Virus record (IMG/VR): IMGVR_UViG_2563366961_000002
Span: 1 to 35,248 of that record
From: a virus
Taxonomy: Duplodnaviria; Heunggongvirae; Uroviricota; Caudoviricetes
Direction: 5' to 3' (one strand)
DNA length: 35,248 nucleotides
The stretch's first letter is position 1, and every line of letters begins with the position of its first letter. The position numbers were made by a program, and so were the translations under genes. The notes beneath the pieces are model-generated. The model ran no database searches. It saw only the letters and a list, made by a program, of their open reading frames with translations, and was not told where the DNA came from. Below, piece by piece: positions 114-35,248 of this stretch.

Positions 114-315
114 ATGTCGTAGGTCTGACTCACCCATTTTTTGGGCGTTGGTGTATAATCCAGCGCCTTTGTCAATCAATGGTGGCTCAGGCGGGGGCTT
201 CTTCGGAAGCGCCGGTATCCTTCAGAGCCGGTTACGCCAACCCTGTCTGGGCTACCACCAGCGAAATTGGCGTTTCCGGTGGTAGCGTAACCTGCTATCT
301 GAAGGAGGCTGCCAC

Positions 316-1981: not shown

Positions 1982-1991
1982 GGATGGAGCC

Positions 1992-2333: not shown

Positions 2334-2697
2334 AAATGCAGAAATGGCGCTTAGCTCCGCAATCGGAGAGCAGGTGGCAAAGATTGCTGGTGCTGTGTGG
2401 ATTCATAACCTTCATTCTACTGGTGAAGAGAAAATGGCAATTCAGACGCCAGAGGGACGCACCATTACTACATCTCTGAAGCCGTCAGATGTTTGTGATC
2501 TGATTTGCGCATTCATGTACCCAGCAATGAGGACTGTCCACGGCGATAAGTGGAAACTTGCGACAACCGCTGAATTTGATATGTGGCTAAACAATGATGG
2601 CATGCTGACTGATTACGGAATAACCAAGTGGCAGATGCTGGTTAGCCATATCGCAAACGCTATAGACCACGTGGGGTACGGTGATGCGAAACATTGA
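2326..2697 (+). CDS. hypothetical protein (123 aa)
   Basis: Start overlaps upstream stop; end overlaps primase start. Confidence 0.5.
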   Translation: MRENAEMALSSAIGEQVAKIAGAVWIHNLHSTGEEKMAIQTPEGRTITTSLKPSDVCDLICAFMYPAMRTVHGDKWKLATTAEFDMWLNNDGMLTDYGITKWQMLVSHIANAIDHVGYGDAKH

Positions 2698-6202: not shown

Positions 6203-6664
6203 ATGGAACTAAAATTTATTGATAACCCTGTGCGATTACAGGCCTTTCTTAACGAGCCAGGCAATACCGAAAATATTGTTGAGCCGGGGCACACGTACTA
6301 CATCAAGCCTGATGCGGTATATCTCGGCATCTACGAAGGATTAGTGCTGGCTGGCGTTCATGAAGTGCGTAACTTCTGGCATAGCGTTGTTGAATGCCAT
6401 GCGGTGTACGACCCCGGATTCCGTGGTGAATATGCACTGCAAGGACATCGATTATTCTGCAAATGGCTTCTCGAAAACTCACCATTCCTTAACAGCATTA
6501 CCATGGTTCCTGACACCACGAAATACGGACGGGCAATTATCCGTTTGCTTGGCGCTACCCGTGTTGGTCATCTTGATGATGCTTATATCAGATGTGGTAA
6601 ACCCGTCGGCGTAACGCTTTATCAGTTAACTCGGCAACAATATAAGGAATTCAGCGAATGTTAA
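6203..6664 (+). CDS. hypothetical protein (153 aa)
   Basis: ORF whose stop overlaps next start (ATGTTAA). Confidence 0.5.
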   Translation: MELKFIDNPVRLQAFLNEPGNTENIVEPGHTYYIKPDAVYLGIYEGLVLAGVHEVRNFWHSVVECHAVYDPGFRGEYALQGHRLFCKWLLENSPFLNSITMVPDTTKYGRAIIRLLGATRVGHLDDAYIRCGKPVGVTLYQLTRQQYKEFSEC

Positions 6665-7335
6665 TTACCCATATAGCTTATAAACATCTCAATCGTGCCG
6701 TATACGAAAAAGGCGGTGATGGTGGTGCCTCTAAAGCTCAGGCGAAGGCCCAGCAGCAGGCAATTGATTTGCAGCGCGAGCAGTGGAATACGGTGATGAA
6801 TAATCTCAAGCCGTATGCAGAAGTCGGATTGCCTGCTTTACAACAACTACAAGGACTGATGACTCTGGAAGGGCAGAATAAAGCCGCGAATGATTTCTTT
6901 GGTTCTGGTTTATATAAAACACAGGCAGATCAGGCCCGTTATCAGAACCTTGTCTCAGCAGAAGCTACCGGGGGGCTTGGCTCAACAGCTACCAGTAACC
7001 AGTTATCTTCCATTGCGCCCATGCTTTATAACAATTGGCTCAGTGGGCAAATGCAAAATTATGGAAACCTGCTAAATGTCGGGATGAATGCGGCATCAGG
7101 GCAGGCAACAGCAGGGCAAAACTACGCCAATAATACCGGACAACTCTTGCAGGGGCTTGGCGCTATTCGTGCAGGTCAGGCGCAGCAGCCATCCAGTCTT
7201 GCGCGTGGTATTGGTGGGGCGGCATCAGGCGCTTTAGCGGGTGCGCAACTTGGTTCCGTTGTTCCGGGTATAGGTAATGTCGCCGGGGCTATTGGTGGTG
7301 GGCTTATTGGTCTTGTTGGGGGGCTTGGATTCTAA
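6658..7335 (+). CDS. Gly/Gln-rich protein with hydrophobic Gly-zipper C-terminus
   Basis: AAGGA upstream; C-terminus GIGGAASGALAGAQLGSVVPGIGNVAGAIGGGLIGLVGGLGF; stop overlaps next start (TAATG). Confidence 0.55.
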   Translation: MLITHIAYKHLNRAVYEKGGDGGASKAQAKAQQQAIDLQREQWNTVMNNLKPYAEVGLPALQQLQGLMTLEGQNKAANDFFGSGLYKTQADQARYQNLVSAEATGGLGSTATSNQLSSIAPMLYNNWLSGQMQNYGNLLNVGMNAASGQATAGQNYANNTGQLLQGLGAIRAGQAQQPSSLARGIGGAASGALAGAQLGSVVPGIGNVAGAIGGGLIGLVGGLGF

Positions 7336-8079
7336 TGGCGACATGGCAACTTGGCGGGCTGCCTAGCATGGCACCGCAAAATGATAATGCTCCTCGTTCT
7401 TCCGTTCCTCAGCCTGTGCAGTATCAGCAGCAGCCAAACGTAGGTTTAATGGCGCTACAGGGGCTAAGAGGCGTTGCTGAGATTAATCAGCAGGCACGTC
7501 AACAACAGCGTAAAGCAGAGTTTCAGAAAGCATATGCCGGGGCTTTTGAGTCTGGAGACAGAAACAAAATGCGCAGTCTTATTTCTGAGTATCCAGAAGA
7601 ATTTGAAAGCGTTCAGAAAGGGATGGGCTTTATTGATGACGACCAGAGAAATTCTATTGGTCATCTTGCGACTAGTGCTCAAATCGCATCTTCGCTCGGA
7701 ACTGGGGCATTTGGAAAATTCATAGCAGATAACGAAGATGAAATGCGTCGTTTGGGAATTTCTCCTGAGTCTGTTGCCGAAATGCATGTTAATGATCCAC
7801 AGGGATTCCAGCGGCTTGCTGGTAGTATGGCACTGTTTTCTCTCGGTCATGAGAAGTACTTCGATATCAAAGATCGAATGGAAGGTCGGGATATTGAGCG
7901 TGGCAAGTTGGCAGAGACGATCCGCAGCAATCAAGCCGGAGAAGCACTTCAGGCGAGAGGGCAGGATATTAGCCGAGCAAATGCGTTAACGTCAGCATAT
8001 GCACCAACAGCCGCAATGCAGAATTACAATCAATACGCGCAAATGTTAAAGGCGGATCCAGAGGGGGCTGCGGCATTTG
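7335..8079 (+). CDS. hypothetical protein, 3' end interrupted by IS1
   Basis: Frame runs into IS1; stop codon TAA 8082-8084 is supplied by IS1 terminal bases. Confidence 0.5.
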
Positions 8080-8094
8080 GGTAATGACTCCAAC

Positions 8095-8598
8095 TTATTG
8101 ATAGTGTTTTATGTTCAGATAATGCCCGATGACTTTGTCATGCAGCTCCACCGATTTTGAGAACGACAGCGACTTCCGTCCCAGCCGTGCCAGGTGCTGC
8201 CTCAGATTCAGGTTATGCCGCTCAATTCGCTGCGTATATCGCTTGCTGATTACGTGCAGCTTTCCCTTCAGGCGGGATTCATACAGCGGCCAGCCATCCG
8301 TCATCCATATCACCACGTCAAAGGGTGACAGCAGGCTCATAAGACGCCCCAGCGTCGCCATAGTGCGTTCACCGAATACGTGCGCAACAACCGTCTTCCG
8401 GAGCCTGTCATACGCGTAAAACAGCCAGCGCTGGCGCGATTTAGCCCCGACATAGCCCCACTGTTCGTCCATTTCCGCGCAGACGATGACGTCACTGCCC
8501 GGCTGTATGCGCGAGGTTACCGACTGCGGCCTGAGTTTTTTAAGTGACGTAAAATCGTGTTGAGGCCAACGCCCATAATGCGGGCAGTTGCCCGGCAT
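8095..8598 (-). CDS. insB: IS1 InsB (expressed as InsAB' by frameshift)
   Basis: 167-aa ORF overlapping insA 3' end in the -1 frame. Confidence 0.9.
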
Positions 8599-8792
8599 CC
8601 AACGCCATTCATGGCCATATCAATGATTTTCTGGTGCGTACCGGGTTGAGAAGCGGTGTAAGTGAACTGCAGTTGCCATGTTTTACGGCAGTGAGAGCAG
8701 AGATAGCGCTGATGTCCGGCGGTGCTTTTGCCGTTACGCACCACCCCGTCAGTAGCTGAACAGGAGGGACAGCTGATAGAAACAGAAGCCAC
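8517..8792 (-). CDS. insA: IS1 InsA
   Basis: 91-aa ORF with the InsA zinc-finger N-terminus [16 protein letters not shown]. Confidence 0.9.
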
Positions 8793-8856
8793 TGGAGCAC
8801 CTCAAAAACACCATCATACACTAAATCAGTAAGTTGGCAGCATCACCGGGTGATTA

Positions 8857-16029: not shown

Positions 16030-18440
16030 AACACGGAAAACCTTAAAATTAATTATTGGGGTATTTAAGGGTATTTTCAGGTGATTTAAGGGTATTAAAC
16101 TTGATTTAATTGATTAAAATATAAACAGATAGTTGTGTATCTTATTGATTTATAAGGTTATTTTTAAATAAAGGTAAATAAAAAATAAATAGCCATAAAT
16201 AGCTATAAATACATCTAAATACCTATATCCCTTCCCTTATGGCTAGATTGCGAGAGGTGCTTAACGCGATTTTCAGCGCCCCCCGATCTGGAAAATCCAG
16301 AATCCCCAAATATCAGCAAGGAATTTTCTTGCGTAATCAACATCGTTTTTACCTATTAAATCATTACACAGAAAGCCTTTCTGTAATGTCTCTCACTAAA
16401 CTTTCACTAAACACGAGAATGATCGGTTTTATGTCGGATCAGATGCTAGAAACAGCACCACGTCTCACAAGGACTGTAAGCGATGAAACCAGTGTTTATG
16501 CGGGTGCAGGTCAAAATATAGGCCAAAATCAATTTAACATAATAAACGTAATATGCACTAAGGAATACATAGAACGCCTTGAGTTGATGTATCAGGGGGG
16601 AAAAATGATGGATTTTTTACGTAGGAGCACGAGAGGGCTTCTGTTGACTTTTGTATGCTATGAAACATAATTAAAGGTTTTTTTGTTTTTATTGTGTGAT
16701 GTAGTGGATTACACAGGGGAATAGATTAAATGGTGTTCTGTTTATACAGGTTTATTTGTTAGATCAACAATTTGGCATTTCTAAACAGATGTTTGAACGT
16801 TGCCAAATGTCTTGACAACACAAGAAAAGGGCTTGCTATGCCACGCATTACACGAAATAAGGCTGTAAAAACAAAATAAATTTTAAAATTTGCACAAACG
16901 AGAAAACTCGTTAAGAAACAAGCAGAACAATTTTTAGCCAACAATTTCTGATGGTGCTCTGTAGGCCGCACTACACAAGGATTTGCGAAAGTGATGTAAA
17001 AGTGAAGAAAGTAAGAATTGCACTTTTAAGCTACTTTTCATTGAATTTTTAGTATGGAATTACACAGGAATAAGTTAGGGATATTCTATGATTTACACAG
17101 GGAATATAGGGGATTATGGCACACACATAGAAAGGCATTACACAGAGTGAGTGCTATGTGATGATTGGTAGTAACGGTAGGTCATAGTGAGCTAGGGGGT
17201 AGGTCACTGTGAACTACAATAAGACTATTAATAAAACTATATTAGATTATTAATTAGATCATAATAATAATATTCTTTATATCTATATATATGATCTTTT
17301 GCCTTCCGGCGTTAGCTTCACTCTCTGGCAAGCAGCCTTACTCCGCTACCTTTCGGGCTTCGTGGCTGGCCCGTTCCGCTCACACCGAAAGCAAAGCGTT
17401 ACTTTCTTCGTGTAACTTCGTTGGCGGTAACGCCCACGAAGAAATCTATTGCGCTGTGCGCAGTAAGAGTAATCACCTAACCAATCATACTGATTGCTTA
17501 TGTGTTAACTCTCTCTAACTCTTAATTACCCTCCTACATTTAATAACTCTGTTATTCTCTGTAGTTGTGTAATTACTCGAAGAGAGAGCGGCTAAAGCTC
17601 AATTACACTCTGCTTTCCTCGTGTAATTTCACTAAGCCTCAATACAATTTCACTTCCTACATTCTGTAGTCGTGTAATTGTTTTCGGTGGAAAAGCCAGA
17701 GGCGACACCGAAAGAGAATTCTGATCTTATTAATCTTATCTATCTTAGTTAATCTTCTTACTTATCTTACTTACTTTATCTACTTTATTATTAATAATAG
17801 CTTTATAAGCTCTCTGTGTAGCTCTCTGACGCAAGAAACAGCATTCAGGAAGGGAATCACCTTAGAAAAGGTGTTCTTTGCGTCATAATGTGTTTTATGA
17901 AGGATTCAGAGGTGTTTCATAACAGGAATGTATAGAGAATACTTTAGGTAATTAAAAATAAGGGGTCTAAATGCTTCTCTAACAGCATTAAGCAGGGTAG
18001 GGAATGGAAACGCATTGCCTACATATAATAAACTCACTACAGGGCTTTACAGGGCGTTTTATAAAGTGACTCTCTGTTTTATATCTACAATCACCTTTTC
18101 ATATACCTAACAAATACAAAATAAGCCCCTTAAATAAGCCTCTGGCGAGCTAAACAGACATTACATAAGAGAATGTATTGCTTTTATCAAAACTTCGTTA
18201 GAACGCGTTTTAGAGCGTTTTAGCGGATAATGAAGAATAGCACTACACAGAAGAGCACGAATTGCCAAGACAAATTATAACATGCTGAAAAAGATCGATT
18301 TTTTCGAAAAGGGTATTGACAAATGTTTCTTTATATGTAATAATAGGTATTAGAGGGACAGAAAAACATTCTTCTCTAAATAATCAAAATCAATGCACTT
18401 TGAAGCCGTCAGGCTTGCAAGGTGTTTTATTTCTTTTAAC
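16030..18440. promoter_or_regulatory. AT-rich non-coding origin/control-like region with iterated motifs
   Basis: No convincing ORF; repeated TTTAAGGGTATT, ATAAATAG, YATTACACAG (both orientations), GGTAGGTCA and TTATCTT runs. Confidence 0.4.
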
Positions 18441-18457
18441 TGAATAAGGAGTTTTTT

Positions 18458-18646
18458 ATGAAATGGTTTACACCGGAGCACGTCGTAAAGGCATTTAAAA
18501 AAGGTGAGCTTACACGCCACCAAATAGTAATGAATCGTAATATGGCAAGGAGTCGAGGTTATCCAGAGCGAGCAGCTTGCTTCAATGAAGCACTCAAGAT
18601 TATTGATGAACTAAGAAAAAATGAAAAAGAATCTGAAACAGAGTAA
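18458..18646 (+). CDS. hypothetical small protein (62 aa)
   Basis: ATG 8 nt after AAGGAG; first gene after the non-coding region. Confidence 0.5.
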   Translation: MKWFTPEHVVKAFKKGELTRHQIVMNRNMARSRGYPERAACFNEALKIIDELRKNEKESETE

Positions 18647-18665
18647 AGAAGAGAAGGAGAAAACT

Positions 18666-18836
18666 ATGAGCGAAGCTACAGAAAAGAAAAGACAACCACG
18701 CACTTGCTTTCATATTCCTGATGAAGTATTTCAGGTGTTGTTTAAAGAAGCCAGAAGTAAACGTATCACTGTTACAGATTACATTCTTGATATGTTGAAA
18801 AGAGAGGCTGAAACACTCTCAAATAAAAGCAAGTGA
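18666..18836 (+). CDS. RHH (CopG/Arc-like) DNA-binding protein
   Basis: Internal ATG after GAAGGAG; RTCFHIPDEVFQVLFKEARSKRITVTDYILDML. Confidence 0.5.
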   Translation: MSEATEKKRQPRTCFHIPDEVFQVLFKEARSKRITVTDYILDMLKREAETLSNKSK

Positions 18837-18889
18837 TTTTTATCACCATAGTAGCGCCATAGAGCGTGATTACATCAAGGAGATTTTTA

Positions 18890-19582
18890 ATGATTAACCA
18901 ACTAACTTTTACAAAACACTATGACACGTTTGATAATATATCAAAGATTTATTCTGATAAATTCCCTCAAGGAAAAGATTTAGATCTATTACATATTGTG
19001 CTTTATTTTCGATTCCTTAGTTATCAGGAAAACAACCTTAATTGTTATGAAAGTCACGAAACATTAGCTAAGATTTTTAAGTCTTCACCATCAACAATTA
19101 AACGTAAGATAAACGATCTTAAAGAGATGGGATTATTAGAAACATCCCCACATCCTGATCCGTATATTTCATCTTTGATTTACAATGCTCTCCCTCTCAC
19201 AGATGCACATATTACTCCCCCAGGAGAATCATCACTCTCTGATCTTTCTGAGGCAGAAGAAGCACAGGAACAACCTAAAGGCCATAAACAGCCTTCTTTT
19301 GATGTTCTTGATGATGATTGGGATACGCCTTTACCCTGGGAGACGGAAGAAACACCTGTTTCATCAAGTGAAAAGGTAGCTAATGATAATGAGGAGGATG
19401 TGTTAGAGAATTTTGCCTCTCTTATCATCCAGGAGAAACACAAAAGAACAGGAGGGGCATCATTTATAGAATTTGCAAATTCACTAGCTTGTAGATACGG
19501 GCTAAAACGACCAAATGGTATTGAGGCATATTTTTCTAAGCATTACCCAAATGTATACGAAGACTTTGATATTCCCTTTTAA
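18890..19582 (+). CDS. winged-helix protein, candidate replication initiator
   Basis: ATG after AAGGAG; wHTH-like LAKIFKSSPSTIKRKINDLKEMGLL; acidic C-terminal half. Confidence 0.5.
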   Translation: MINQLTFTKHYDTFDNISKIYSDKFPQGKDLDLLHIVLYFRFLSYQENNLNCYESHETLAKIFKSSPSTIKRKINDLKEMGLLETSPHPDPYISSLIYNALPLTDAHITPPGESSLSDLSEAEEAQEQPKGHKQPSFDVLDDDWDTPLPWETEETPVSSSEKVANDNEEDVLENFASLIIQEKHKRTGGASFIEFANSLACRYGLKRPNGIEAYFSKHYPNVYEDFDIPF

Positions 19583-19598
19583 AAAGTAAGGAGGACTA

Positions 19599-19877
19599 TT
19601 GATACAGTATTTAATAAAAAGCAAAGTAGACAGAATTCAGTGTAACGACACAGGAAAACGCATCTACGAAACGCTTGCTTACCTCTATAAAGGAAAGCCA
19701 ACACCGCTAAAATATAGCGATGTGTTACATCGAGCAGGTTGCTCTGAGTCAGGTTTAAAATTCTGGCTGAAACAGCTATCAAATTTCGGTGTTATTGAAA
19801 TGAAAGAGCTGTCTTTCTCTACATTTAATCTCAAAAGACTAGATAAAGAAATAGAATTCATCTATTCCACTCTCTAA
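19599..19877 (+). CDS. hypothetical wHTH-like protein
   Basis: TTG start 5 nt after AAGGAGG. Confidence 0.45.
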   Translation: MIQYLIKSKVDRIQCNDTGKRIYETLAYLYKGKPTPLKYSDVLHRAGCSESGLKFWLKQLSNFGVIEMKELSFSTFNLKRLDKEIEFIYSTL

Positions 19878-20009
19878 AATCTCTCTATGTAATTAAAATA
19901 TAAAAGGAAAACATTATTATGATAGTAGCTATGTATTGGTTATTGTTCTTTCTCACGTTAGAAGCATATTTCGGGGTGTTTTCCTTTAAAAGAAAAGGAA
20001 AAGTAAATT

Positions 20010-20420
20010 ATGGCAAAAAGAAAAAACAACGTTGTTAAGAAAATCGGTGATTCAGCTTCTCTTCTAAGTAAACCTAAATCTATTCTAAAACGTAAAGACT
20101 TTAAAGAGCTAGTTACGCTCACCAAGCATAATAGCGCCCCTGGCGAATGGAAAACAGAGATCATAGAACATTCTCCCTCTGTGCCTTGTGGAGATGAATA
20201 TATCGCCTTACAAGAAATCTTATCTTCAACACCTGGCGTGTTCTGGAAACCTAAAAAAAGAAAAGAGTATATCGTTGATAGCTCTGATTTACGCAAATAC
20301 CAGATTTTAGGATTTGAAGATTATAATCACTACGTTGGTTATCTCGCCACAAATGGCCTAAATAATTTAGTTCCTGAATTCCAGATTTTAGATAATGCAG
20401 ATCACTATGGAGACTTTTAA
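20010..20420 (+). CDS. hypothetical protein (136 aa)
   Basis: ORF with AAAGGAAAAG upstream. Confidence 0.5.
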   Translation: MAKRKNNVVKKIGDSASLLSKPKSILKRKDFKELVTLTKHNSAPGEWKTEIIEHSPSVPCGDEYIALQEILSSTPGVFWKPKKRKEYIVDSSDLRKYQILGFEDYNHYVGYLATNGLNNLVPEFQILDNADHYGDF

Positions 20421-20421
20421 T

Positions 20422-20760
20422 ATGAACAAAAACACGTATGACACAATTTACTCACTAATTAATTATTATGAGGATGATTACCTCCTGCCTTTAAACCGCG
20501 CTGAACTTGAAGCATACAAAGAAAACACGCCAGCGGCACTAAATGAGGCGTTTAAACACTGGGATTTAGCTGTGAATGCCTTTGAGCACCTCTCTAAGCG
20601 TGTAGAGATGCTCTGTAAGCGCGAAAACGCATACCTGACAGCCGATCAGGTATGGGAATTATCAAACTGGATAGAAGATATTGAATCTGATGTTCGCTAT
20701 GTGGGAGATGGACTTGTTGAACTAGCGCAACGCTTAGGCGCTACTATCACAGAAGAATAA
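20422..20760 (+). CDS. hypothetical protein (112 aa)
   Basis: ATG 8 nt after GGAG, immediately after upstream stop. Confidence 0.5.
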   Translation: MNKNTYDTIYSLINYYEDDYLLPLNRAELEAYKENTPAALNEAFKHWDLAVNAFEHLSKRVEMLCKRENAYLTADQVWELSNWIEDIESDVRYVGDGLVELAQRLGATITEE

Positions 20761-20789
20761 AAAAAGCAACAAAAAAGTTGTAAAATATC

Positions 20790-20818
20790 TTGACATTCCA
20801 TCTATTGTATGTTAATAT
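20790..20818 (+). promoter_or_regulatory. sigma70-type promoter
   Basis: TTGACA, 17-bp spacer, TAATAT. Confidence 0.5.
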
Positions 20819-21010
20819 AATTATATAGGGGTGATTATTTTTCCTTTATTGGTTCGATATTAAAAATTCTTCCTGTCATTAAAGGGGAGTAAAATCTCCG
20901 CTCCCCGCTTCTTCTCCTCCTTAAGTAAATACTGTGCCATTATACCTCTTTGTTATGCATACATCTTGGAGTATGCATAACATAGGGTAATTACATAGGT
21001 ATGAGTTAAT

Positions 21011-21042
21011 AAAAGGCGGCTTTAAATGCTGCCTTTTATTTT
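21011..21042 (+). terminator. putative rho-independent terminator
   Basis: AAAAGGCGGC-loop-GCTGCCTTTT hairpin then ATTTT. Confidence 0.45.
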
Positions 21043-21104
21043 GCCCGTTATACAACTTAAAAGTTGTATTTCTTACTTTAAACAAGGTAACAAGGTTTAT
21101 ATAA

Positions 21105-21317
21105 ATGTTGCTCTTAAATGATAAAGAGCAAATCATCAAGTATAAAGATGAAATGCTGAAAATTAATCCACAAATTACCGAAATGGTAGCTAAATACGCT
21201 GGGTGTTCTGTCGAGGAAGTAGAAAGATGTGTTGAAAAATATTTTTCTCCTTCTTCTCCGTCTACACCTTCCCTTAATGAATTAATCAAATTAAAAGCTA
21301 AGGAGATTACTAAATGA
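21105..21317 (+). CDS. hypothetical small protein
   Basis: 70-aa ORF; stop overlaps next start. Confidence 0.45.
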   Translation: MLLLNDKEQIIKYKDEMLKINPQITEMVAKYAGCSVEEVERCVEKYFSPSSPSTPSLNELIKLKAKEITK

Positions 21318-21676
21318 TTATTGATTTAGACACTCTGTTTCCAGTTCGAAAGACTTTCACGGATATTGTAAGTTATTGTACTGATCCGTTTGCCTCTGTA
21401 GAAAGCAAGGTTTTTGCTTCTCTTCCTGCTGATGTTGAGTGCGGCGACTTGATCACCAGCACTGGCGCTAAATATGAATCAGGAGATGATATTTATGTTG
21501 TTATGAGTGAATTTGTAACGGCTGGAGAAAACAAGCCTGTAGATGTGCTACGTAGCAATGCTGGGCTTGTATGCATCAAAGCTGATGCGCTGAATGCTGT
21601 AAGTGAAGCAGCAAAAACAGCATTAATTAAAAAAGGCTTTCAGCTTGAAGGGTTCCATTCTGTTTTCACTTCTTAA
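21314..21676 (+). CDS. hypothetical protein, possibly head-associated
   Basis: 120-aa ORF immediately upstream of the capsid-like gene. Confidence 0.45.
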   Translation: MIIDLDTLFPVRKTFTDIVSYCTDPFASVESKVFASLPADVECGDLITSTGAKYESGDDIYVVMSEFVTAGENKPVDVLRSNAGLVCIKADALNAVSEAAKTALIKKGFQLEGFHSVFTS

Positions 21677-21694
21677 TAAAAGGAATAATAATAA

Positions 21695-22723
21695 ATGATT
21701 CTAGGTAATGATTACGTTGATTTAGCTCCTCTGTTCTCTGCGCATAGCACTAGAAATTATCTACTTTCTACTCTCGACTTCACTGATCCGGTGGGCGTTA
21801 GTTCTCATAAAGTAGCTGTTTCCCAGCTTGTCGAAAGCAACGAATCTCTCTTTAACAAAGAGACAAGCCGTTTTAGTTCTGAACACAATGTTACTAAGCG
21901 AGAACAAGGTAAAGAATGGCTGATCGAAATCCCTTACTTCCTGCGTGAAGATGTGATCCGTCCTTCTGATGTTCAAGGCAAGCGTAAGCCTGGCACTGAT
22001 TTTCAGGAAACACTCACTGATATTTATGCTGACTATGTTGCTAAACACCACGTAGCGTATCAGCGTACAAAAGAGAGCGTGCTGGCTGCATCTCTGTTTA
22101 GCGGTAAAACTTACACGCCTAAAACTGATGATGTTCTTATCGAGTGGAGCAAGCTGTTTAACGTATCAGCTATGAAAGCCACTGTGAACGCTTCCAGCAC
22201 TGACACCACGAAGATTTTTAAAGAATTTGATCAGATTGCTACTGACATTATCGAAAAAGCACAGAGTCAGGCGGCGGCTGTAGAGCGAATTGTTGTTTTC
22301 TGTAAGCCGGAAGCCTTCTCTGCAATTCGATTCTCTGCTGGTATGGCAAACGCATTCCAGTATGTAAGCCCACTGGAAGAGGGGAACGTTGTGTATCAGC
22401 GTCGTGACCTGCTGCCAGGGGTGACAGCGTTCACTATTCCAGGAACTAACATTGATGTTGTTAAACTGGTAGATCCGCTACACCTGGCACATATGACCGC
22501 AGACGCTGTAGCTGTGCCTAAATTCTCTAAGGGTAGCGGAATTTATACCAACATCTACGGGGCTGCTTCCAGCACCTTTGAACTGATTAATGCCGCTCCT
22601 GCTGAGGTGTATAGCTATAGCTATGAATCTTCTCGTGGTGATGCTGTTAACGTTGTTACAGAGAATAGCCAGATGGTGGTAAACCACGGTGTAGGCTTCT
22701 CCGTTCAAATCACTGTTAAATAA
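21695..22723 (+). CDS. putative major capsid-like protein (342 aa)
   Basis: Strong terminator directly downstream; size and weak local resemblance to lambda gpE-type capsid proteins (from memory). Confidence 0.45.
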   Translation: MILGNDYVDLAPLFSAHSTRNYLLSTLDFTDPVGVSSHKVAVSQLVESNESLFNKETSRFSSEHNVTKREQGKEWLIEIPYFLREDVIRPSDVQGKRKPGTDFQETLTDIYADYVAKHHVAYQRTKESVLAASLFSGKTYTPKTDDVLIEWSKLFNVSAMKATVNASSTDTTKIFKEFDQIATDIIEKAQSQAAAVERIVVFCKPEAFSAIRFSAGMANAFQYVSPLEEGNVVYQRRDLLPGVTAFTIPGTNIDVVKLVDPLHLAHMTADAVAVPKFSKGSGIYTNIYGAASSTFELINAAPAEVYSYSYESSRGDAVNVVTENSQMVVNHGVGFSVQITVK

Positions 22724-22741
22724 TATTTTAACGTGTAATAG

Positions 22742-22777
22742 AGGCGTGGCGTGAATAACACGCTTCGCCTTTTTTTA
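22742..22777 (+). terminator. rho-independent terminator
   Basis: AGGCGTGGCGTG-aataa-CACGCTTCGCCT followed by T7. Confidence 0.6.
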
Positions 22778-22809
22778 TTTATTTTTAAATTTTGAGAGGT
22801 GATTAAAAT

Positions 22810-23013
22810 ATGGAAGTGATTTTGAAATCAAAAAATGGTGTACACGTACATTTAGATGCTAATGATTCTAGAGGATTGTTAAATCTGAAATATCTCTGTT
22901 CTCTTTTAGATGTTCCCTATGAAGGAGTAAAAGCCCGTATGTTCAGATTAAACGAGAGTATTGATCAGGCTCTACACCATTTCTTAAGCAAAGAAGGTGG
23001 TAAAAATGATTAA
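22810..23013 (+). CDS. hypothetical small protein (67 aa)
   Basis: ORF with GAGAGGTGA upstream. Confidence 0.45.
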   Translation: MEVILKSKNGVHVHLDANDSRGLLNLKYLCSLLDVPYEGVKARMFRLNESIDQALHHFLSKEGGKND

Positions 23014-23027
23014 TAAGGGGATTTTAA

Positions 23028-23921
23028 ATGTTAGAAATTAACACTTCTAAAATTAAGAACACAGTAACATTTAGTGTAGATAAAGACAGCTTGAAAAAAG
23101 CGAAAGACTCTATTACAGGCTTAAAGGAATTTGCAGAGAATATCAAGCCAGCTAAGTTAAGGTTTGATAATGTCACTAAAGGCTATAAGAAAGCACAAAG
23201 TGAAGTAGACAAGATTGCTCAACAGAAAGCTAAAGCCGAAAAACAGAATCAAAGAGTACAAGCTGCCGCAGCAAGAGCACAGGCAAGGCAACAGCAACAA
23301 ATAGCAGCACGTAAAGAGAAAGCAGAATTAAAACTCCTCGATGTGTCAAGCTCTATCAGTGCAATGCACCGTCTCTCTGTAGCTGAACAATACAAAGCTA
23401 TTGCACAGGCTAGAGAAATTGCCCTCCAATATGAAAGAGGCGCTATTAGTCTGGCACGTATGAATAGCCAGATGAAACGCTTACAACAGCAACAACGTAA
23501 GATTAATGGCAACAGAAAAGCACAATTAGCCCCCGTTAAGGGAGGATCAGGGAATTCCGCCACTATGGGCGCTCTGTTATTTGGAGGCGCTACGGCTGCT
23601 GCTGGCGTGATGGCTGTTAGTAAAGCGTCGGAGTTTGTTAGTAGCAGTTTCGCTAACGCAGAGACCCAAGGGGAGCTAATCCAACGTGCAAGGCTTGGCG
23701 GTGTAGACGTTAACCAGATGTATAATATTACAGAATGGGCGTATAGAAACGGCGTTGACTCTATGATGGGTGATCAAGGGGCTAGGAAATACCTGGATCA
23801 GATGAAAGATGTTAGGGAACGTGCCGCAAAATCCTACAGTGAAGCTGAATTGGTGAAAGACAAGAAAACCGGAAAATCTGAATGGAAAGGCGGTGATAAT
23901 GCTATTAATGAACTTCTAAAC
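23028..23921 (+). pseudogene. N-terminal fragment (298 codons) of a 609-aa coiled-coil protein disrupted by IS2
   Basis: Reading frame continues in phase across the IS2 target duplication to 25258-26193. Confidence 0.7.
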
Positions 23922-23932
23922 TGGATTTGCCC

Positions 23933-24838
23933 CTATATTTCCAGACATCTGTTATCACTTAACCCATTACAAGCCCGCTGCCGCAGATATTCCCGTGGCG
24001 AGCGATAACCCAGCGCACTATGCGGATGCCATTCGTTATAATGCTCGAACGCCTCTGCAAGGTTCTTTGCTGCCGTTAACCCGTCTGGTTTGGGCATGAT
24101 ACTGATGTAGTCACGCTTTATCGTTTTCACGAAGCTCTCTGCTATTCCGTTACTCTCCGGACTCCGCACCGCCGTGTTCTTCGGTTCAAGTCCCAACATC
24201 CGGGCGAACTGGCGTGTTTCATTAGCCCGGTAGCATGAACCATTATCCGTCAGCCACTCCACTGGAGACGACGGAAGATCGTTGCCGAAGCGGCGTTCCA
24301 CCGCTCCCAGCATGACGTCCTGTACTGTTTCACTGTTGAAGCCGCCGGTAGTGACCGCCCAGTGCAGTGCCTCACGATCACTGCAGTCCAGCGCGAACGT
24401 GACACGCAGTCTCTCTCCGTTATCACAGCAGAACTCGAACCCGTCAGAGCACCATCGCTGATTGCTTTCTTTCACGGCCACTCTGCCTGTATGTGCCCGT
24501 TTCGATGGCGGTACAGCAGGTTTTCGCTCAAGCAACAGCGCATTCTGGCGCATGATCCGGTAAACACGTTTGGCATTGATCGCAGGCATACCATCAAGTT
24601 CTGCCTGTCTGCGAAGCAGCGCCCATACCCGACGATAACCATACGTGGGCAGCTCTCCGATAACATGGTGTATACGGAGAAGCACATCCGTATCATCAGT
24701 GTGACGACTGCGGCGGCCATCCATCCAGTCATCGGTTCGTCTGAGAATGACGTGCAACTGCGCACGCGACACCCGGAGACAACGGCTGACTAAGCTTACT
24801 CCCCATCCCCGGGCAATAAGGGCGCGTGCGCTATCCAC
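23933..24838 (-). CDS. insD: IS2 OrfB (InsD) DDE transposase
   Basis: 301-aa ORF overlapping orfA end; retroviral-integrase-like catalytic domain. Confidence 0.85.
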
Positions 24839-25161
24839 TTTTTTGCCCGTCCATATTCAACGGCTTCTTTGAGGAGTTCATTTTCCATCGTTTTCTTGCC
24901 GAGCAGGCGCTGGAGTTCTTTAATCTGCTTCATGGCGGCAGCAAGTTCAGAGGCAGGAACAACCTGTTCTCCGGCGGCGACAGCAGTAAGACTTCCTTCC
25001 TGGTATTGCTTACGCCAGAGAAATAACTGGCTGGCTGCTACACCATGTTGCCGGGCAACGAGGGAGACCGTCATCCCCGGTTCAAAGCTCTGCTGAACAA
25101 TTGCGATCTTTTCCTGTGTGGTACGCCGTCTGCGTTTCTCCGGTCCTAAGACATCAATCAT
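24796..25161 (-). CDS. insC: IS2 OrfA (InsC)
   Basis: [25 protein letters not shown]... HTH protein, 121 aa. Confidence 0.85.
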
Positions 25162-25252
25162 CTGCTCTCCAATGACTAGTCTAAAAACTAGTATTAAGAC
25201 TATCACTTAAATAAGTGATACTGGTTGTCTGGAGATTCAGGGGGCCAGTCTA

Positions 25253-26193
25253 TAAACATCGGTGTTATTAACAAAAGCGACCTTAAAAAATTTGCTGATA
25301 ATCCGGCTGGATTAATTTCTAAGGCTGTTAATGGAATGATGAAAAAAGGGTTTTCAGACTCCCAAATTGGACAACGTTTAGAAGACCTGGGCGATGATTT
25401 GATGCTTACGTCAAAATATTGGCAACGTTCCGTTAAAGATGTACAAGAAAGTATTAATCAGCAAAAAGCCTCTGGAAAATGGCTAACAGAAACACAGCAA
25501 GACTCTATTGTTAAATTCAGAGAACTAAACAGACAGCTTTCACAGCTTTCTGATGCAAGACAAGTAGCATTCGTAGACGGCTTTATGAAATCTCTCGATC
25601 CAAAAGTAACGGAAGAGTTTATGAAAAACCTTTCTAATCTCACTCCGTATTTTACGAAGCTGGGAGAAGCTACAGGAAGTCTCTTTGAAGCTATTATGAA
25701 GATTGTAAACTGGTTTAATCGTAATGATGATAAGACAGATGCTATTCAGAAAAATATGGGTGATGCACCGCCATTAAGCAATGAAGGGATGAAACAGAAT
25801 CTTTCTAATCTCGTTCCTAATCAATATAAAGGCGCTGGCACTGCAACAACTACACCTGATAATAGTCATTCTCTCTTTAACACAATTAAGGGATTGCTTT
25901 TCGATGATAATTCTTCTGTGTCAGATGTAAAAATGTCAGTCAATGAAGCACCGATAACCAATCTCAAACAGGGTGCTTTAAATAATCTTGCAATGACAAC
26001 TCCAGCTTATAATTTATCTCCTGTGTTTAATCTGAATCCTACATTTGAAGTGGTAACAGAAGTGCCGCTAACTATCGAATCAGACACCGGACGATTGAGC
26101 GATTATGTGGATTTTACAGCGAGAGCAAGTCGGGATAGCTTCTTGAAATCATTAACATTAACCAGCTTATCAGGACAATCCAACGGCGGGTAA
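25253..26193 (+). pseudogene. C-terminal fragment of the IS2-disrupted 609-aa protein
   Basis: In phase with 23028-23921 through the duplicated TAAAC. Confidence 0.7.
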
Positions 26194-26227
26194 TTCCCGC
26201 CATAACATTACAAGGAAAATTATTATT

Positions 26228-26941
26228 ATGGCGACCGCCGGGATTTTAACCATACGTGCAGCAAATACTCCAGAACAACACGTTCAGGCTGTTTACAAAG
26301 CAGAACAAGATATAAATTCTACAAAAAACGAAAATAGCAAAGCTAATAAAACAAAAGGAGAGAACGGATTTGCTATTGTTACCAGTGGCTTGGCATCTTC
26401 TGGTAATGACGTTTATGAAAATTATATGGCACTGGCCTTTGATAGTGTTGACGATGTGAACGTGAGACGTTCGGCAGATGTCACAAGCTACCCCGTAGAA
26501 AATGGTGCTACTGTGTCTGATCACGTTCAAATTAAAAACAATAAGTTCTCTCTTAAAGGGCGTATCACTGAAACACCGATTAAAAGCGATCCTGGCTTGT
26601 TAAAGAGTGCAGGGGTGAACGGGAACAGAAGATCATTAGCTATAGACTACTTGAATCAGATTATGGACAGTAGACAGCCTTTTCTTCTTGTTACAGAAAA
26701 TAAAACTTTTGAGAACGTTGTTTTAACAGGCATCGAATACACAGAAGAGGCAAGCGAATCCCTGGTATTTGATCTTAGCTTTGAACAAATAAGATTAGTT
26801 TCTTATGGTACTGTAAACACTGTAGCTATCAAAACACAGCCATCTAAGAACATCGGGGCGAATATGAAAAAACGTGTTAACACTGAAAAATCAAGTAGTG
26901 AAGGTGAAGACACTATTACTCCTGCCTTTAAACAGGAATAG
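26228..26941 (+). CDS. hypothetical protein (237 aa), possibly structural
   Basis: ORF following the coiled-coil gene on the same strand. Confidence 0.5.
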   Translation: MATAGILTIRAANTPEQHVQAVYKAEQDINSTKNENSKANKTKGENGFAIVTSGLASSGNDVYENYMALAFDSVDDVNVRRSADVTSYPVENGATVSDHVQIKNNKFSLKGRITETPIKSDPGLLKSAGVNGNRRSLAIDYLNQIMDSRQPFLLVTENKTFENVVLTGIEYTEEASESLVFDLSFEQIRLVSYGTVNTVAIKTQPSKNIGANMKKRVNTEKSSSEGEDTITPAFKQE

Positions 26942-27022
26942 CCGTAAATGCCTCTAAAACGCTCTGTAACGATGTAATTATAAAAGAGGCTACCAATCTA
27001 TGTTGAAGCCTCTTTATTGCGT

Positions 27023-28357
27023 CTATGGCGTTGTTTTGCGCATTAAATTTGATTTTTTATTGATTGATAAGCCTTTCTCTATTTCAGGGTAGCGTAGAAG
27101 CTCAATATAGTTTTTAAGCTCTACTGGAGAAGCTGCATTCTTGCTATATGTGCGGAATGTCTCTGTATTGCCGCGTGTATGGCCCAGGAGAAGGGCGATC
27201 CTGTCTTCTGGAATTTGATTTCGATCAAGAAGCTGTGCTACTCCGTGTCTCAGAGAATGAAACACCTTCCTTTCTGTTCCCTTTTCCCCTAAAGCCTTTC
27301 GTTTAGCTCTTGTAAATCTCTGCGTGTGCCACGTGGAACGTTTACCATCAGCACGCTCTGTAATGCTGGCGTGATAGAACAAAAAGCCATTATGAGGCTT
27401 TTCACGCAGCGACAACACCAACGGAGTGATAAGGCTATGCACAGGCACAAGACGTGCCGCAGCTTTCGTTTTTCCCTGTGTGATTTCAAAACACAGCACA
27501 CCTTCGATCTCTTTCACATCGTCTATTGTGAGACTTGCTATCTCATTGATCCGCATACCTGTATAAGCACCGATAAGACACAAAGCCATCATTTCTTTGT
27601 TTTCTGCTGAATCACCGGAAAATACTTGCAACACCTGCAATAGCTCTTTGTTAGAAAATGCCTCGTAGCTCTCTCTACTTTGTGCCACATCAAGCCTATG
27701 CCCTCGCCAGGGGGAGAGCGCCCTTTCTGGCGCATCGTGGTAACGTGATGAAGCTAACTCCCATAGCTGGGCCATTGGGCTGATATAATTTGCAATTGAT
27801 TGTTGTGAAAGGGTTTTTTGCATGTGTTCTATCCAGCCTGTAACAGTGGTGCGGCTTACATCTTGCAATGCAATATCAGGCTTTTTACGGTAGGAGAGAA
27901 ACATCTCTACCGCTTTTCTTGCCTTAGCTAAAGTGGCTGGCTTCTTCTTCGTGCTGTTAATTGTCAGGTAGATTTCAAGAATTTTAAGCAATGACGGACA
28001 CGAAGACGCTGTATCTTGCATTCTGGTAGCTGTTTTGGCGTATTTAGCCTTACTGCGTAACAGTTCCAGCGTGTTCTCTATTGTGCTGTTTACAGGGGCG
28101 ACACTCTCCCGTAGACAATGGTATTCATCTGCAATCTGATCACGCTTTCTACGTGCAACACGAAGACTACTTGTGTGCAGACTTCTGACAAACGTCCTTT
28201 TTCCTTCAAAAAAGGGCTGCATATACACAGGCAACGTGATCCTCAAATAGTAGTTACCGTAAGAATCACAGATTATGTATTGATTGGGCTTGTATCTCAT
28301 AAACTCCCCGGCTAAAGTGTCGGAGCGTTTGTAATGTGAAAATTGATTGTAACGCAT
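27023..28357 (-). CDS. tyrosine recombinase / phage-type integrase
   Basis: R (RINEIASL), HxxR (HSLRHG) and H...Y (GHTRGN...RTYSK) catalytic pattern; a second ATG at 28300 has the better RBS (GGGGAG). Confidence 0.85.
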   Translation of the reverse strand: MRYNQFSHYKRSDTLAGEFMRYKPNQYIICDSYGNYYLRITLPVYMQPFFEGKRTFVRSLHTSSLRVARRKRDQIADEYHCLRESVAPVNSTIENTLELLRSKAKYAKTATRMQDTASSCPSLLKILEIYLTINSTKKKPATLAKARKAVEMFLSYRKKPDIALQDVSRTTVTGWIEHMQKTLSQQSIANYISPMAQLWELASSRYHDAPERALSPWRGHRLDVAQSRESYEAFSNKELLQVLQVFSGDSAENKEMMALCLIGAYTGMRINEIASLTIDDVKEIEGVLCFEITQGKTKAAARLVPVHSLITPLVLSLREKPHNGFLFYHASITERADGKRSTWHTQRFTRAKRKALGEKGTERKVFHSLRHGVAQLLDRNQIPEDRIALLLGHTRGNTETFRTYSKNAASPVELKNYIELLRYPEIEKGLSINKKSNLMRKTTP

Positions 28358-29054
28358 AGAAAATGATAATTTTTTCTATAAGATTCAATCAATTAGTAAT
28401 GGTCGTAGGTGATGGCATTAACACGAGATTAATCGAGTGTTTTACTCCTCTTATCGGCACCATTTAAATCAATAAGTTATCTCACATTTAAGTAAACTAC
28501 GTTCTCCTCTTGTGCCTTTGATTTTGCTCGCGTGCGCGGTGAAATGCCTGACTGAAAGGTGAGCATATCGACGAACCATTTCGAGAGTTTCCCATCCGCT
28601 CATTTTTAAGTGCAAGCAGGGAAACACCGGACTAAACCAATCAGCTGTTCGAAAATGGCAAGCGGATTAATATGCCATGGCGGCTTTGAGCCGCACATAT
28701 GGGGTGTGGCAAGCCTGATGGATGTTGCTGTGCTTGTGGTGGCGTCTTTGCTGGTCTGGTTGTTGGTTAATCGCGAAAATCATTATGCCAGAGGAATACC
28801 ACAGGACGTTCAGGTTTTGCATAAAAAAGCCCACCATTAAGGTGTGCAAAAGGAATGATTTATATTCTCTGAGAGAAACATTACATTTCTCCTTGTCACT
28901 TCTAACATAAAAATATGGAGAAATAATGGAGCTTATATTAATTGGCGATTAGGTAACCATGTGGTTATACAAAACAATACAGTTCTTTACATTTGCCTTG
29001 TTTTATGAATACTCCTGAAGAGGTGTACAACATAATTAAACAAACAGGGTAAAT

Positions 29055-30559: not shown

Positions 30560-31269
30560 TTAGTCCGCCGAAGGGGGCTTAGCCGGACAGGAATCGCTAA
30601 TCTTAATGAATTTGTCGTTATAGACCAGATAGTGATTCCCCGGCTGACGTAACTCAGGCTGATGAACCACGTCTCCCGGACGTAGATACCAGGCATCGCC
30701 TTCCTCTTCGGTCGAATCACATCCTGGTTTAATCAGTAGCTTAAACCACGTGTTGCCGGTGTTACTTACCGCTCCGGTCACCTGATCGAAGGACCATTTA
30801 AACTGAACCTGACGTGGTCGTACTACCAGAATGGTATCCATCACCACCACCGGCTCTGTGCTGACCTCGCCGCCGGTTGGGCTACGTCTTGTCTGGTTGC
30901 GAGTGGGGACCTCGCGAATGAGACCCGGTAGTAGCGCTCGCGGTTATCCTGTGGACCATGATAGTAAAATTTAAAATACTCGCTCTCACCAGCCTGCAAC
31001 GCCAGCTGGCGGGGGGCGAAAAGCAGTTCACCATCCACCGGTCGAGTGCGCAATTCACTGCTGCCCGGGCTATCGATAGCACTGATGGCAATACGGTATA
31101 TCCGCGCGCTTTTGTTGTTATTCACTACACGTTTGCTGACAAAGTCAGTCTCGGACGGCAGCGAAAATGTCAGATTACCGACCGAAATCGCCTGTGTCAA
31201 AGGTGCCGCCAGCATACAGACCACTGTCAGCAGGGCCTTAGTTAATGTTACGCCACGTCGCCTGAACAT
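30560..31269 (-). pseudogene. ecpE: ecpE (fimbrial chaperone) split by an apparent 1-nt frameshift near 30916
   Basis: N-terminal part in frame of 30841-31314 ORF, C-terminal part in frame of 30560-30850 ORF; together span a full-length chaperone. Confidence 0.7.
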
Positions 31270-35154: not shown

Positions 35155-35248
35155 GGTGATGCTGCCAACTTACTGATTTAGTGTATGATGGTGTTTTTGA
35201 GGTGCTCCAGTGGCTTCTGTTTCTATCAGCTGTCCCTCCTGTTCAGCT
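35155..35248 (+). mobile_element. IS1 5' terminal fragment (IRL end), truncated by window edge
   Basis: GGTGATGCTGCCAACTTACTGATTTAGTG... equals reverse complement of 8754-8847. Confidence 0.9.

Follow-up and report, generated by a model that had tools for sequence, protein, structure and literature searches.

Results

An integrative island in the thrW region of Escherichia coli

This study concerns an integrative island within a stretch of 35,248 nucleotides, the IMG/VR virus record IMGVR_UViG_2563366961_000002, the whole of which is referred to here as the window. The island carries genes for a major capsid protein (MCP), a tape measure protein (TMP), a tail-tube initiator and a tyrosine integrase, and a first-pass annotation had described a compact, phage-like module at positions 18458-28357. 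The window matches the E. coli chromosome of isolate AF3 (NZ_OZ547117.1) at 100% over positions 18000-29000 and at 99.97% over 8078-35248, and it spans a pile-up of islands between thrW and yagU, with yagU, ykgJ and ecpE/D/C to the right of the module.

The right-hand limit of the module as first drawn lies near attR, a copy of the 3' end of thrW that adjoins the integrase gene. Its left-hand limit had to be moved, because the left end of the element lies at ~15113 and the span 18458-28357 thus omits a 3.3-kb left arm that is low in GC and poor in open reading frames (ORFs). The whole element therefore occupies about 15113-28462, or ~13.35 kb with the insertion sequence IS2 counted. Its left junction was placed by comparison with L002, the locus of strain STEFF_1, which served as a thrW-integrated reference copy without IS2: homology starts at window position 15115, corresponding to L002 position 3974, inside the 20-bp attachment (att) core. 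No exact att repeat was found on the left side of the window. In L002, an exact 20-bp direct repeat of the thrW 3' end lies on either side of the element, which is 13.1 kb long including an IS1 copy. A tRNA scan of the window identified no tRNA gene, thrW itself being outside it, and an Rfam search of 14500-29000 returned one chance-level match only.

Capsid and tail proteins related to those of phage phi92

All of the ORFs listed in the first-pass annotation were recovered at the same coordinates (Table 1), and those that it had singled out could mostly be given firmer identities. The 342-residue protein regarded as capsid-like is an MCP of HK97 type in the Phage_cap_E family (E=2.5e-14; score 53.5 bits, cutoff 22.9; positions 14-329 of the 329-position profile covered), and the best PDB match of its family profile was Phi92_gp124, over the full length, with E=3.6e-19. 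It shares 20% identity over its full length with the MCP of phage alia, and no phage MCP more than 25% identical to it was present among 50,697 phage records, in which the closest MCPs belong to virulent phages. The strong terminator reported behind the capsid gene is a GC-rich hairpin followed by a run of T residues.

The 609-residue coiled-coil protein, which had been reconstructed across 23028-26193, is a TMP. Removal of IS2 restores an uninterrupted frame that is 97% identical to the IS2-free copy in L002, and the intact copy matched phrog_16051 with E=3.3e-53 and, as its best PDB match, Phi92_gp134 with E=1.1e-38. The N-terminus, MLEINTSKIKNTVTF, is common to the TMPs of phi92 and alia, and the C-terminus, ...SLTLTSLSGQSNGG, matches that of the phi92 TMP; more generally, the patterns MLEINTSKI(K/N)NTVTF and SLTL...SGQS(S/T)TGG occur at the two ends in Enterobacteriaceae islands as well as in phi92 and alia, with the middle of the protein diverging between islands and phages. 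In the phi92 virion the C-terminus of the TMP is resolved inside the baseplate (PMC13450770). Conserved termini of this kind would be expected of a protein that docks into helper tails.

Directly following the TMP gene, the 237-residue protein is a tail-tube initiator of the Dit_like family, matching Phi92_gp135 with E=2.1e-78 and also the proteins named tube initiator of 9cuy and Pam3. It is 58-61% identical to its positional counterpart in Justusliebigvirus and Phapecoctavirus, where the gene likewise comes directly after that for the TMP. The convergent gene beyond it encodes a tyrosine integrase, as had been proposed.

The 120-residue protein encoded upstream of the MCP occupies the position of a head decoration protein, and its counterpart in a published family of elements (see below) was labelled Dec by HHsearch (PMC10448857). 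Signals pointing the same way in our analyses were weak: a Serratia homolog matched phrog_2680 (head decoration) with E=0.18, and a C-terminal VFTS is shared. An AlphaFold2 model from a 26-sequence alignment had a mean pLDDT of 40 and was not used for a fold search. Comparison with the alia decoration protein gave an hhalign probability of 2.4% and no BLASTP match, and PDB profile searches yielded no match. The 67-residue protein encoded between the MCP and TMP genes is probably a small helix-turn-helix (HTH) DNA-binding protein, its family having sub-threshold HTH matches only (Sigma70_r4_2 in three members, HTH_psq and DUF2089-HTH). It has no similarity to phi92 gp133, which is encoded by a small gene that precedes the TMP gene of the phage, or to the tail chaperone of alia.

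Genes that are absent from the island

The 13 proteins of 18458-28357 and three small flanking ORFs were scanned against Pfam and PHROGs, some of them also against NCBIfam or PADLOC. These scans detected no terminase, portal, protease, tail tube, sheath, lysis or P-loop family, which bears out the earlier report that terminase, portal, tube, lysis and P-loop ATPase genes were not recognisable. Scaffold, connector and baseplate-machinery genes were likewise not found among the island proteins, other than the tube initiator, and PADLOC returned no defence family. The set expected of an autonomous tailed prophage (terminase, portal, complete tail, lysis) was absent from the window copy and from every related locus examined. 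Two further identities were discarded: a Microviridae-type or filamentous prophage, with which the capsid family is not compatible, and a tailocin, since neither a sheath nor a tube gene is present.

Replication initiator and putative origin

The protein earlier described as a winged-HTH initiator was confirmed as initiator-like by matches to HTH_36 (E=1.1e-5) and to the replication initiation family phrog_270 (E=1.1e-9), and Pfam and PHROG scans found no primase or helicase domain in it. Upstream lies a putative iteron origin, in which eight ATTACAC(R)(R) repeats form convergent arrays flanking an AT-rich stretch at ~17230-17290. Nine matches to this pattern occur in the whole window, where 1.05 would be expected by chance, and eight of the nine fall within 16363-17678. 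The same array is present in L002, and elements with other initiator types have different iteron arrays at the equivalent position. L002 differs from the window by an extra 390 bp (L002 6007-6397) with five copies of the CTACCCCC repeat, and by an IS1 insertion (6893-7660) that lies inside the putative origin region; copies free of IS2 can therefore be damaged elsewhere too.

For the ORF called a ribbon-helix-helix (RHH) protein, the reading frame is present, and its weak match to an Arc-like repressor family (Table 1) makes the RHH identity possible. No family match was found in Pfam or PHROGs for the 62-residue early protein, and the 136-residue core protein had no relative in Pfam, PHROG, PADLOC, NCBIfam or PDB.

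A conserved promoter, leader and terminator before the structural operon

Between the early genes and the structural operon lies a near-consensus sigma-70 promoter of the form TTGACA-17-TGnTAnnAT, followed by a structured leader (folding z=-6.2) and an intrinsic terminator that is situated 40-100 nt upstream of the first structural gene. The promoter block aligns in all ten sequences compared, with the -35 and extended -10 elements near consensus in most. A strict pattern search recovered the promoter in five of nine elements, and all nine have a terminator-like hairpin ahead of the first structural gene. The layout is similar to that of lambda PR'-tR', which suggests antitermination control or a leader small RNA.

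Table 1. Features of the island in the window, followed by genes of the neighbouring P22-like remnant.
Position	Strand	Feature	Basis or remark
15113..15134	.	Degenerate attL-like junction (TTCCTATTATCG-CACAATCAAG) with upstream tandem element	Homology to L002
16363..17678	.	Putative replication origin: eight ATTACAC(R)(R) iterons (ATTACACAG repeats), 5 on +, 3 on -	Pattern count
18316..18344	+	Strong sigma-70-like promoter of early operon, TTGACA-17-AATAAT with TG	11/12 consensus positions; consensus match only
18458..18646	+	62-aa early protein	ORF; kept in E. coli, Klebsiella, Buttiauxella, Kluyvera and Citrobacter elements
18621..18836	+	Small protein, possibly RHH/Arc-like	RefSeq start 18666; phrog_582 Arc-like repressor, weak, E=0.0039
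18866..19582	+	Replication initiator, RepA_N/HTH_36-type winged helix	RefSeq start 18890; HTH_36, phrog_270
19599..19877	+	92-aa protein	ORF; homologs in some elements; no family match
20010..20420	+	136-aa family-core protein	29-56% identity in 8 other elements; dN/dS 0.13
20395..20760	+	112-121-aa family-core protein	RefSeq start 20422; kept in 5 other elements; dN/dS 0.15; no family match
20790..21043	+	Promoter (TTGACA-17-TGTTAATAT, 20790-20818), ~215-nt structured leader and intrinsic terminator (21012-21043)	
21105..21317	+	70-aa protein, first gene of structural operon	45-50% identity in 6 other elements; dN/dS 0.14
21314..21676	+	120-aa protein at position of head decoration (cement) protein	Directly upstream of MCP gene, as in phi92/alia
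21695..22723	+	MCP, HK97 fold, Phage_cap_E family, 342 aa	Pfam, PDB profile search
22742..22777	+	Intrinsic terminator after capsid gene	GC-rich hairpin then T7
22810..23013	+	67-aa protein, probably small HTH DNA-binding	Family-conserved; no amino-acid change vs L002
23028..23921	+	TMP gene, 5' part, codons 1-298	phrog_16051, Phi92_gp134
23922..25252	-	IS2 insertion, 1331 bp, TAAAC duplication at 23917-23921 and 25253-25257	RefSeq: IS3-like element IS2
25258..26193	+	TMP gene, 3' part, codons 299-609	Joins 5' part
26228..26941	+	Tail-tube initiator (Dit_like), 237 aa	Pfam Dit_like E=3.4e-29
27023..28357	-	Tyrosine integrase	RefSeq CDS 27023-28300; Phage_integrase E=6e-17, DUF6538, Phage_int_SAM_5
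28444..28462	.	attR, copy of thrW 3' end with one mismatch (ACTCCTcTTATCGGCACCA)	Repeat search
6203-6664		gp14-like DUF2824	P22-like remnant
6658-7335		P22_gp7	P22-like remnant
7335-8084		Injectosome translocase, gp20-like, cut by IS1 at 8074-8847	P22-like remnant
8857-10962		P22-gp16 family ejection protein	P22-like remnant

Distribution and conservation of the island family

Homologs of the MCP, with identities down to 37%, were found only in Enterobacterales, namely in E. coli, Citrobacter, Klebsiella, Enterobacter, Cronobacter, Kluyvera, Buttiauxella, Scandinavium, Dryocola, Serratia and Sodalis, and homologs of the 120-residue protein extend the range to Leclercia and Escherichia albertii. 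An identical compact gene order is present in at least nine divergent elements (from E. coli, Klebsiella, Buttiauxella, Kluyvera, Citrobacter, Serratia and Sodalis). In all contexts examined it runs from small early genes through an initiator, the type of which varies, two core proteins and a long intergenic region to the 70-aa, ~120-aa, MCP, ~65-aa and TMP genes and the convergent integrase gene. The tube initiator gene, which lies between the last two, is present in some lineages only (E. coli, Buttiauxella and Sodalis). Neither a terminase nor a portal gene was found in any family context examined. Of the MCP homologs, 53 were examined in context, and none lies in a full-size prophage; intact homologs in ordinary full-size prophages would have counted against the satellite-like reading of the first-pass annotation, as would the lack of a capsid fold in the 342-residue protein.

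A search for intact copies and att sites had been proposed, and such copies do exist. Those with both ends are 13.1-13.9 kb long and are bounded by 20-44-bp tRNA-derived direct repeats: in addition to thrW, with the exact repeat of L002, integration sites were found at tRNA-Gly(CCC) in Klebsiella (13.9 kb) and tRNA-Leu(CAA) in Buttiauxella (13.8 kb). Among 5426 complete E. coli genomes, 176 contain the island (at least 80% of an 11-kb query covered). Matches in IMG/VR were provirus calls of 19-76 kb, mostly from isolate genomes as judged by their contig identifiers. The 12-13-kb contigs from metagenomes contain chromosomal flanks.

Comparison of two E. coli variants, the window copy and L002, gave ratios of nonsynonymous to synonymous substitution rates (dN/dS) of 0.0-0.25 in every gene compared. 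The values include 0.043 for the MCP, 0.07-0.135 for the TMP, 0.084 for the tube initiator, 0.21 for the initiator and 0 for the 67-residue protein; the 120-residue protein likewise has no amino-acid change relative to L002 and a dN/dS of 0.

Members outside E. coli have an additional short tyrosine recombinase of 183-205 residues at the tRNA-proximal end, which consists of the catalytic domain only, with R...HxxR...H...Y motifs. It is encoded on the minus strand in five loci (L004 2968-3585, L006 3138-3689, L007 3576-4133, L008 264-845 and L010 3816-4394) and is absent from the E. coli thrW copies, in which it was searched for. It may act as a second recombinase, as a directionality factor or as a regulator. 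The left arm of the Klebsiella element L004 carries a Dam-family methyltransferase gene (4394-5083), which suggests that the otherwise ORF-poor left arm is a site for cargo.

Relationship to phi92-like phages

The best solved-structure matches of the MCP, TMP and tube initiator are thus gp124, gp134 and gp135 of a single phage, phi92, in whose virion gp135 makes up the first ring of the tube, a hexamer, gp123 serves as a beta-tulip cement protein and the head has T=13 geometry (PMC13450770). Whether taken from the E. coli, the Klebsiella or the Serratia element, the TMP matches only the same ~134 phage records, which are mostly Escherichia and Klebsiella phages of Stephanstirmvirinae type. Five unannotated records of ~146-151 kb are labelled as Campylobacter phages (MG065639, MG065645, MG065650, MG065656 and MG065689); their host labels look doubtful, since their TMP and tube-initiator matches are the same as those of E. 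coli Stephanstirmvirinae phages.

The structural genes differ in how they relate to the phages. Among the islands, MCP identity ranges from 36% to 95%, compared with ~20% between island and phage MCPs. The E. coli and Buttiauxella tube initiators, in contrast, are 62% and 77% identical, respectively, to the phage protein and only 50-53% identical to each other, and the Klebsiella TMP is 39-42% identical to the phage TMP versus 31% to that of the E. coli island. Since the tail genes are nearer to those of phages and the MCPs nearer to each other, this pattern suggests that the capsid gene is ancient and that the tail genes have been exchanged with helpers repeatedly.

The structural module of phi92-like phages (Stephanstirmvirinae; PMC13450770) shares with the island the order decoration, MCP ... 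TMP, tube initiator, as well as the TMP termini and the best PDB matches gp124, gp134 and gp135. However, the phage module exceeds 30 kb and includes terminase, portal, protease, scaffold, connectors, sheath, tube, hub, spike, wedges and fibres, whereas the island keeps four genes, and its MCP is only ~20% identical to that of the phage.

Membership in a published family of putative satellites

Barth, Dunham and Seed described 224 putative E. coli phage satellites in 2023 (NAR Genom Bioinform 5:lqad076; PMC10448857, Fig. 8 and Table S6; preprint PMC10055350). The elements are ~13 kb long, att-flanked and situated beside tRNAs; their gene set comprises decoration, MCP, TMP, baseplate, integrase and RepA_N genes and includes no terminase, prohead protease, alpA, head-tail adaptor or Pri-Rep genes. 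They were reached by way of an Odn-like phage nuclease and a BLASTn search of E. coli and close relatives, and the proposal that they are parasites of large lytic phages of the phi92 type was made on sequence evidence only. The T5orf172 (Odn-like) nuclease of phages Inny, Muut or Mt1B1_P17 has a DNA-binding domain homologous to the RepA_N-type initiator of the satellites, and Table S6 lists the island in O104:H4 strains (PMC10448857).

The element in the window has the features of this family, and our comparison identifies it as a member; it is therefore already known and not new. The satellite sequences of Table S6 start AGAAAATCAATAACTTAGCTTAACTTCTC..., which corresponds to the window from 15134 onwards, and their att_WT, CGAGTGTTTTACTCCTATTATCGGCACCATT..., corresponds to the window from 28434 onwards with one mismatch in the quoted stretch. 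Size and tRNA-derived flanks are represented by attR and the intact 13.1-kb copy in L002, the attL of the window being degenerate, and the gene content agrees firmly for the MCP, TMP and Dit-like protein, weakly for decoration, with the listed absences holding. The window copy differs in no essential respect from the satellites described there, its peculiarities being the IS2 in its TMP gene, its degenerate attL and its position in tandem with other elements. In addition, the sole phage match of the initiator among the 50,697 records was inny_184 of Justusliebigvirus inny (tblastn E=7e-5; pairwise E=2e-12), a protein with two HTH_36 stretches and a T5orf172/MUG113 domain that shares ALPLTDAHITPP with the initiator.

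The passages of PMC10448857 considered here do not mention the phi92-like structural homology, the spread to Klebsiella, Serratia, Sodalis and further genera, or the leader-terminator. Relative to the description given there, the structural links to phi92-like phages, the exchange of tail genes and the wider spread are additions, as is the conserved promoter-leader-terminator before the structural operon.

Neighbouring elements and remnants

The remainder of the window contains pieces of several other elements. Upstream of the island, a P4-like replication module occupies 179-5440, with an Ash-family protein at 179-721 (Phage_ASH E=2e-20) and a P4-alpha-like primase-helicase of 919 residues at 2681-5440 (Zn_Ribbon_Prim, Toprim_3, DUF927); it belongs to a separate element. 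Because this module is not shared with AF3, a second satellite-like element may sit in the thrW pile-up. A P22-like prophage remnant follows at 6203-10962 (Table 1), and between it and the island a PerC-family regulator and a protein of the plasmid pRiA4b ORF-3 family are annotated at 13134-13415 and 14019-14561. Just outside attR are a fragment of an integrase pseudogene (~28477-28631, minus strand) and, within 28610-28840, an ORF of 61-76 residues that matches phrog_34165 (E=4e-14); the features at 28477-28840 seem to be left over from an earlier thrW island. The window has a copy of IS1 at each end (1-91 and 35155-35248) and one internally (8074-8847), the right-hand one truncating ecpC, and the matching RefSeq record marks ecpE (~30560-31269) as carrying a frameshift.

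Discussion

In this study, we determined that the window carries a member of a family of 12-14-kb integrative islands of Enterobacterales, whose presumed helpers are large phages of the phi92, phAPEC8, alia and inny types (Stephanstirmvirinae). As judged from sequence, the family probably consists of helper-dependent satellites of these virulent myophages. The suggestion in the first-pass annotation that the module could be satellite-like is supported by the recurring compact gene order, the repeats of tRNA ends and the dN/dS values of 0.0-0.25, and by the publication of such elements as putative satellites (PMC10448857).

Comparison with characterised satellites shows resemblances to several of them, each accompanied by differences. 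The capsid-forming phage-inducible chromosomal islands (cf-PICIs) are likewise small integrative islands of ~10-15 kb that encode an HK97-fold capsid protein of their own and rely on a helper for everything else. However, cf-PICIs carry portal, prohead protease, head-tail connector, small terminase (TerS), alpA and Pri-Rep genes and take only tails from their helpers, and none of these hallmarks had a match in the island (Pfam, PHROGs). Conversely, cf-PICIs are without tail-core genes, whereas the island carries a TMP and a tube initiator, and their helpers are temperate, whereas the presumed helpers of the island are virulent phages of ~150 kb. We know of no characterised satellite that carries tail-core genes.

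The PICI-like elements (PLE) of Vibrio cholerae resemble the island in three respects: their helper, ICP1, is a virulent myophage, as is the presumed helper of the island; their initiator is of the RepA_N type with a modular DNA-binding domain; and a phage origin-directed nuclease (Odn) copies a domain of the initiator, as also described for the island (PMC10448857). In contrast to the island with its own MCP, PLE have no capsid gene and remodel the ICP1 coat via TcaP, and they have a large serine recombinase and neither TMP nor tube initiator, whereas the island has a tyrosine integrase and an enterobacterial host. The PLE set TcaP/CapR/NixI and the Vibrio host do not apply to the island, and no sequence family is shared beyond the RepA_N type. 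Satellites of the P4 type are similar to the island in being 11-13 kb long, in integrating at tRNA genes by a tyrosine integrase and in using a contractile-tailed helper, and production of small capsids is a logic that would be expected of the island too. P4 nonetheless has no capsid gene, redirects the P2 coat via Sid and Psu, and replicates by its alpha primase-helicase; psu, sid, delta, alpha and epsilon were not detected in 15113-28462. Classical PICIs (SaPI/EcCI) have an int-stl/alpA-pri-rep organisation with TerS or packaging redirection and no structural genes, whereas the island has structural genes and none of alpA, Pri-Rep and TerS. The earlier remark that the organisation does not match P4 or classical PICIs is thus upheld by the absence of the marker genes of both.

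If the islands are satellites, infection by a phi92-like phage would lead to excision, to replication from the iteron origin and to read-through of the terminator before the structural operon. The capsid and decoration proteins of the island would then assemble, probably into a shell smaller than the T=13 head of the helper and suited to ~13 kb, and this shell would use the portal, protease, scaffold and terminase of the helper. Potentially, the TMP and tube initiator dock into helper baseplates via their helper-like N- and C-termini and nucleate tails there. The outcome would be chimeric particles that move the island, with the yield of the helper probably reduced. Some of these phages have a counter-measure in the form of the Odn-like nuclease whose DNA-binding domain copies the island initiator (PMC10448857). 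Whereas the integration sites, the parts of the replicon, the structural homologies, the gene absences, the selection and the link to the phage nuclease were observed, we infer the induction signal, the use of helper portal, scaffold and terminase, the smaller capsid, the chimeric tails and the interference with the helper.

Several points weigh against this interpretation. No experimental report of helper-driven induction, packaging or transfer was found, either in this study or in the literature searched, which also contained no experimental follow-up of the published family. No ~13-kb packaged or circular form was found in IMG/VR or among metagenome contigs, and no determinant of packaging specificity (TerS, pac or cos) was identified. 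Co-assembly with the helper portal and scaffold is assumed, since the capsid protein is only ~20% identical to that of the helper, and the size of the capsid is not predictable from sequence. The decoration assignment depends on the published HHsearch label together with the weak signals found here, and why a satellite would need its own TMP and tube initiator is without explanation. Lastly, the copy in the window is disrupted by IS2 and has no clean attL. With its TMP gene split and its attL degenerate, this copy is probably not transfer-competent and is probably defective.

Given these points, other explanations need to be weighed, of which the most serious is that the element is a non-transferring anti-phage defence island whose divergent capsid, TMP and tube initiator are dominant-negative decoys of phi92-like assembly. 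The tail proteins do keep helper-compatible termini around divergent cores, the tail genes track those of the phages, and no packaging determinant was found. In addition, the phage nuclease is apparently aimed at the island origin, as would be expected if the island were harmful (PMC10448857). We consider this explanation unlikely, as the integrase, the att sites at several tRNA genes and the island's own replicon have been kept, and horizontal transfer is required by the spread of the island across genera at different sites. A complete MCP and decoration-like pair with dN/dS values of 0.04 and 0 also exceeds what decoys would need, and PADLOC detected no defence family. Moreover, interference with a phage is compatible with transfer as a satellite, as in PLE.

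Far less probable is the origin raised in the first-pass annotation, a decayed temperate prophage from which packaging, tail and lysis genes were deleted. The window copy could give that impression, with its IS2 insertion and degenerate attL and its place in a thrW pile-up with P22-like ejection genes and IS1 copies, and it is indeed damaged. For the family, however, the idea is wrong, because the compact architecture recurs at three tRNA sites under purifying selection, which was found for all the genes compared. The order is kept at MCP identities of 37-95% in many genera, in elements of 13-14 kb with intact att repeats, full-size prophages are missing from all 53 contexts, and the closest phage MCPs, at most 25% identical, come from virulent phages. 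We give slightly less credence still to an autonomous minimal element that uses its capsid- and TMP-like proteins for a compartment or a secretion-related structure independently of phages, an idea that would account for a structural set too incomplete for a virion and for several core proteins with no detectable function. Yet the best structural relatives of all three structural proteins are found in one virion, that of phi92, the gene order mirrors that of the phage, the tail genes bear traces of recent exchange with such phages, and the initiator is mirrored by a phage nuclease.

Within the interpretation of the islands as helper-dependent satellites, a more specific and tentative proposal, to which we give rather less than even chances, is that they re-programme both ends of the helper virion. 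They would place their own small head, made from a capsid and cement pair of ancient divergence, on the helper portal and nucleate tails with their own TMP and tube initiator, re-acquiring tail genes from current helpers time and again so as to remain compatible, and the operon would be gated by infection-dependent antitermination at the leader resembling lambda PR'-tR'. If true, this would be a new hijacking strategy.

Conclusions

If confirmed as satellites, the islands would be an E. coli counterpart of the PLE-ICP1 system, in which a satellite exploits large virulent myophages in a tractable host, and they would be the only satellite type known to us that brings tail-core as well as capsid proteins. 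Phages of the phi92 and phAPEC8 types are candidates for phage therapy, and because the island was found in 176 of 5426 genomes and in O104:H4 strains, it could affect both the outcome of such therapy and gene transfer. The structural links to phi92 make concrete experiments on these questions possible.

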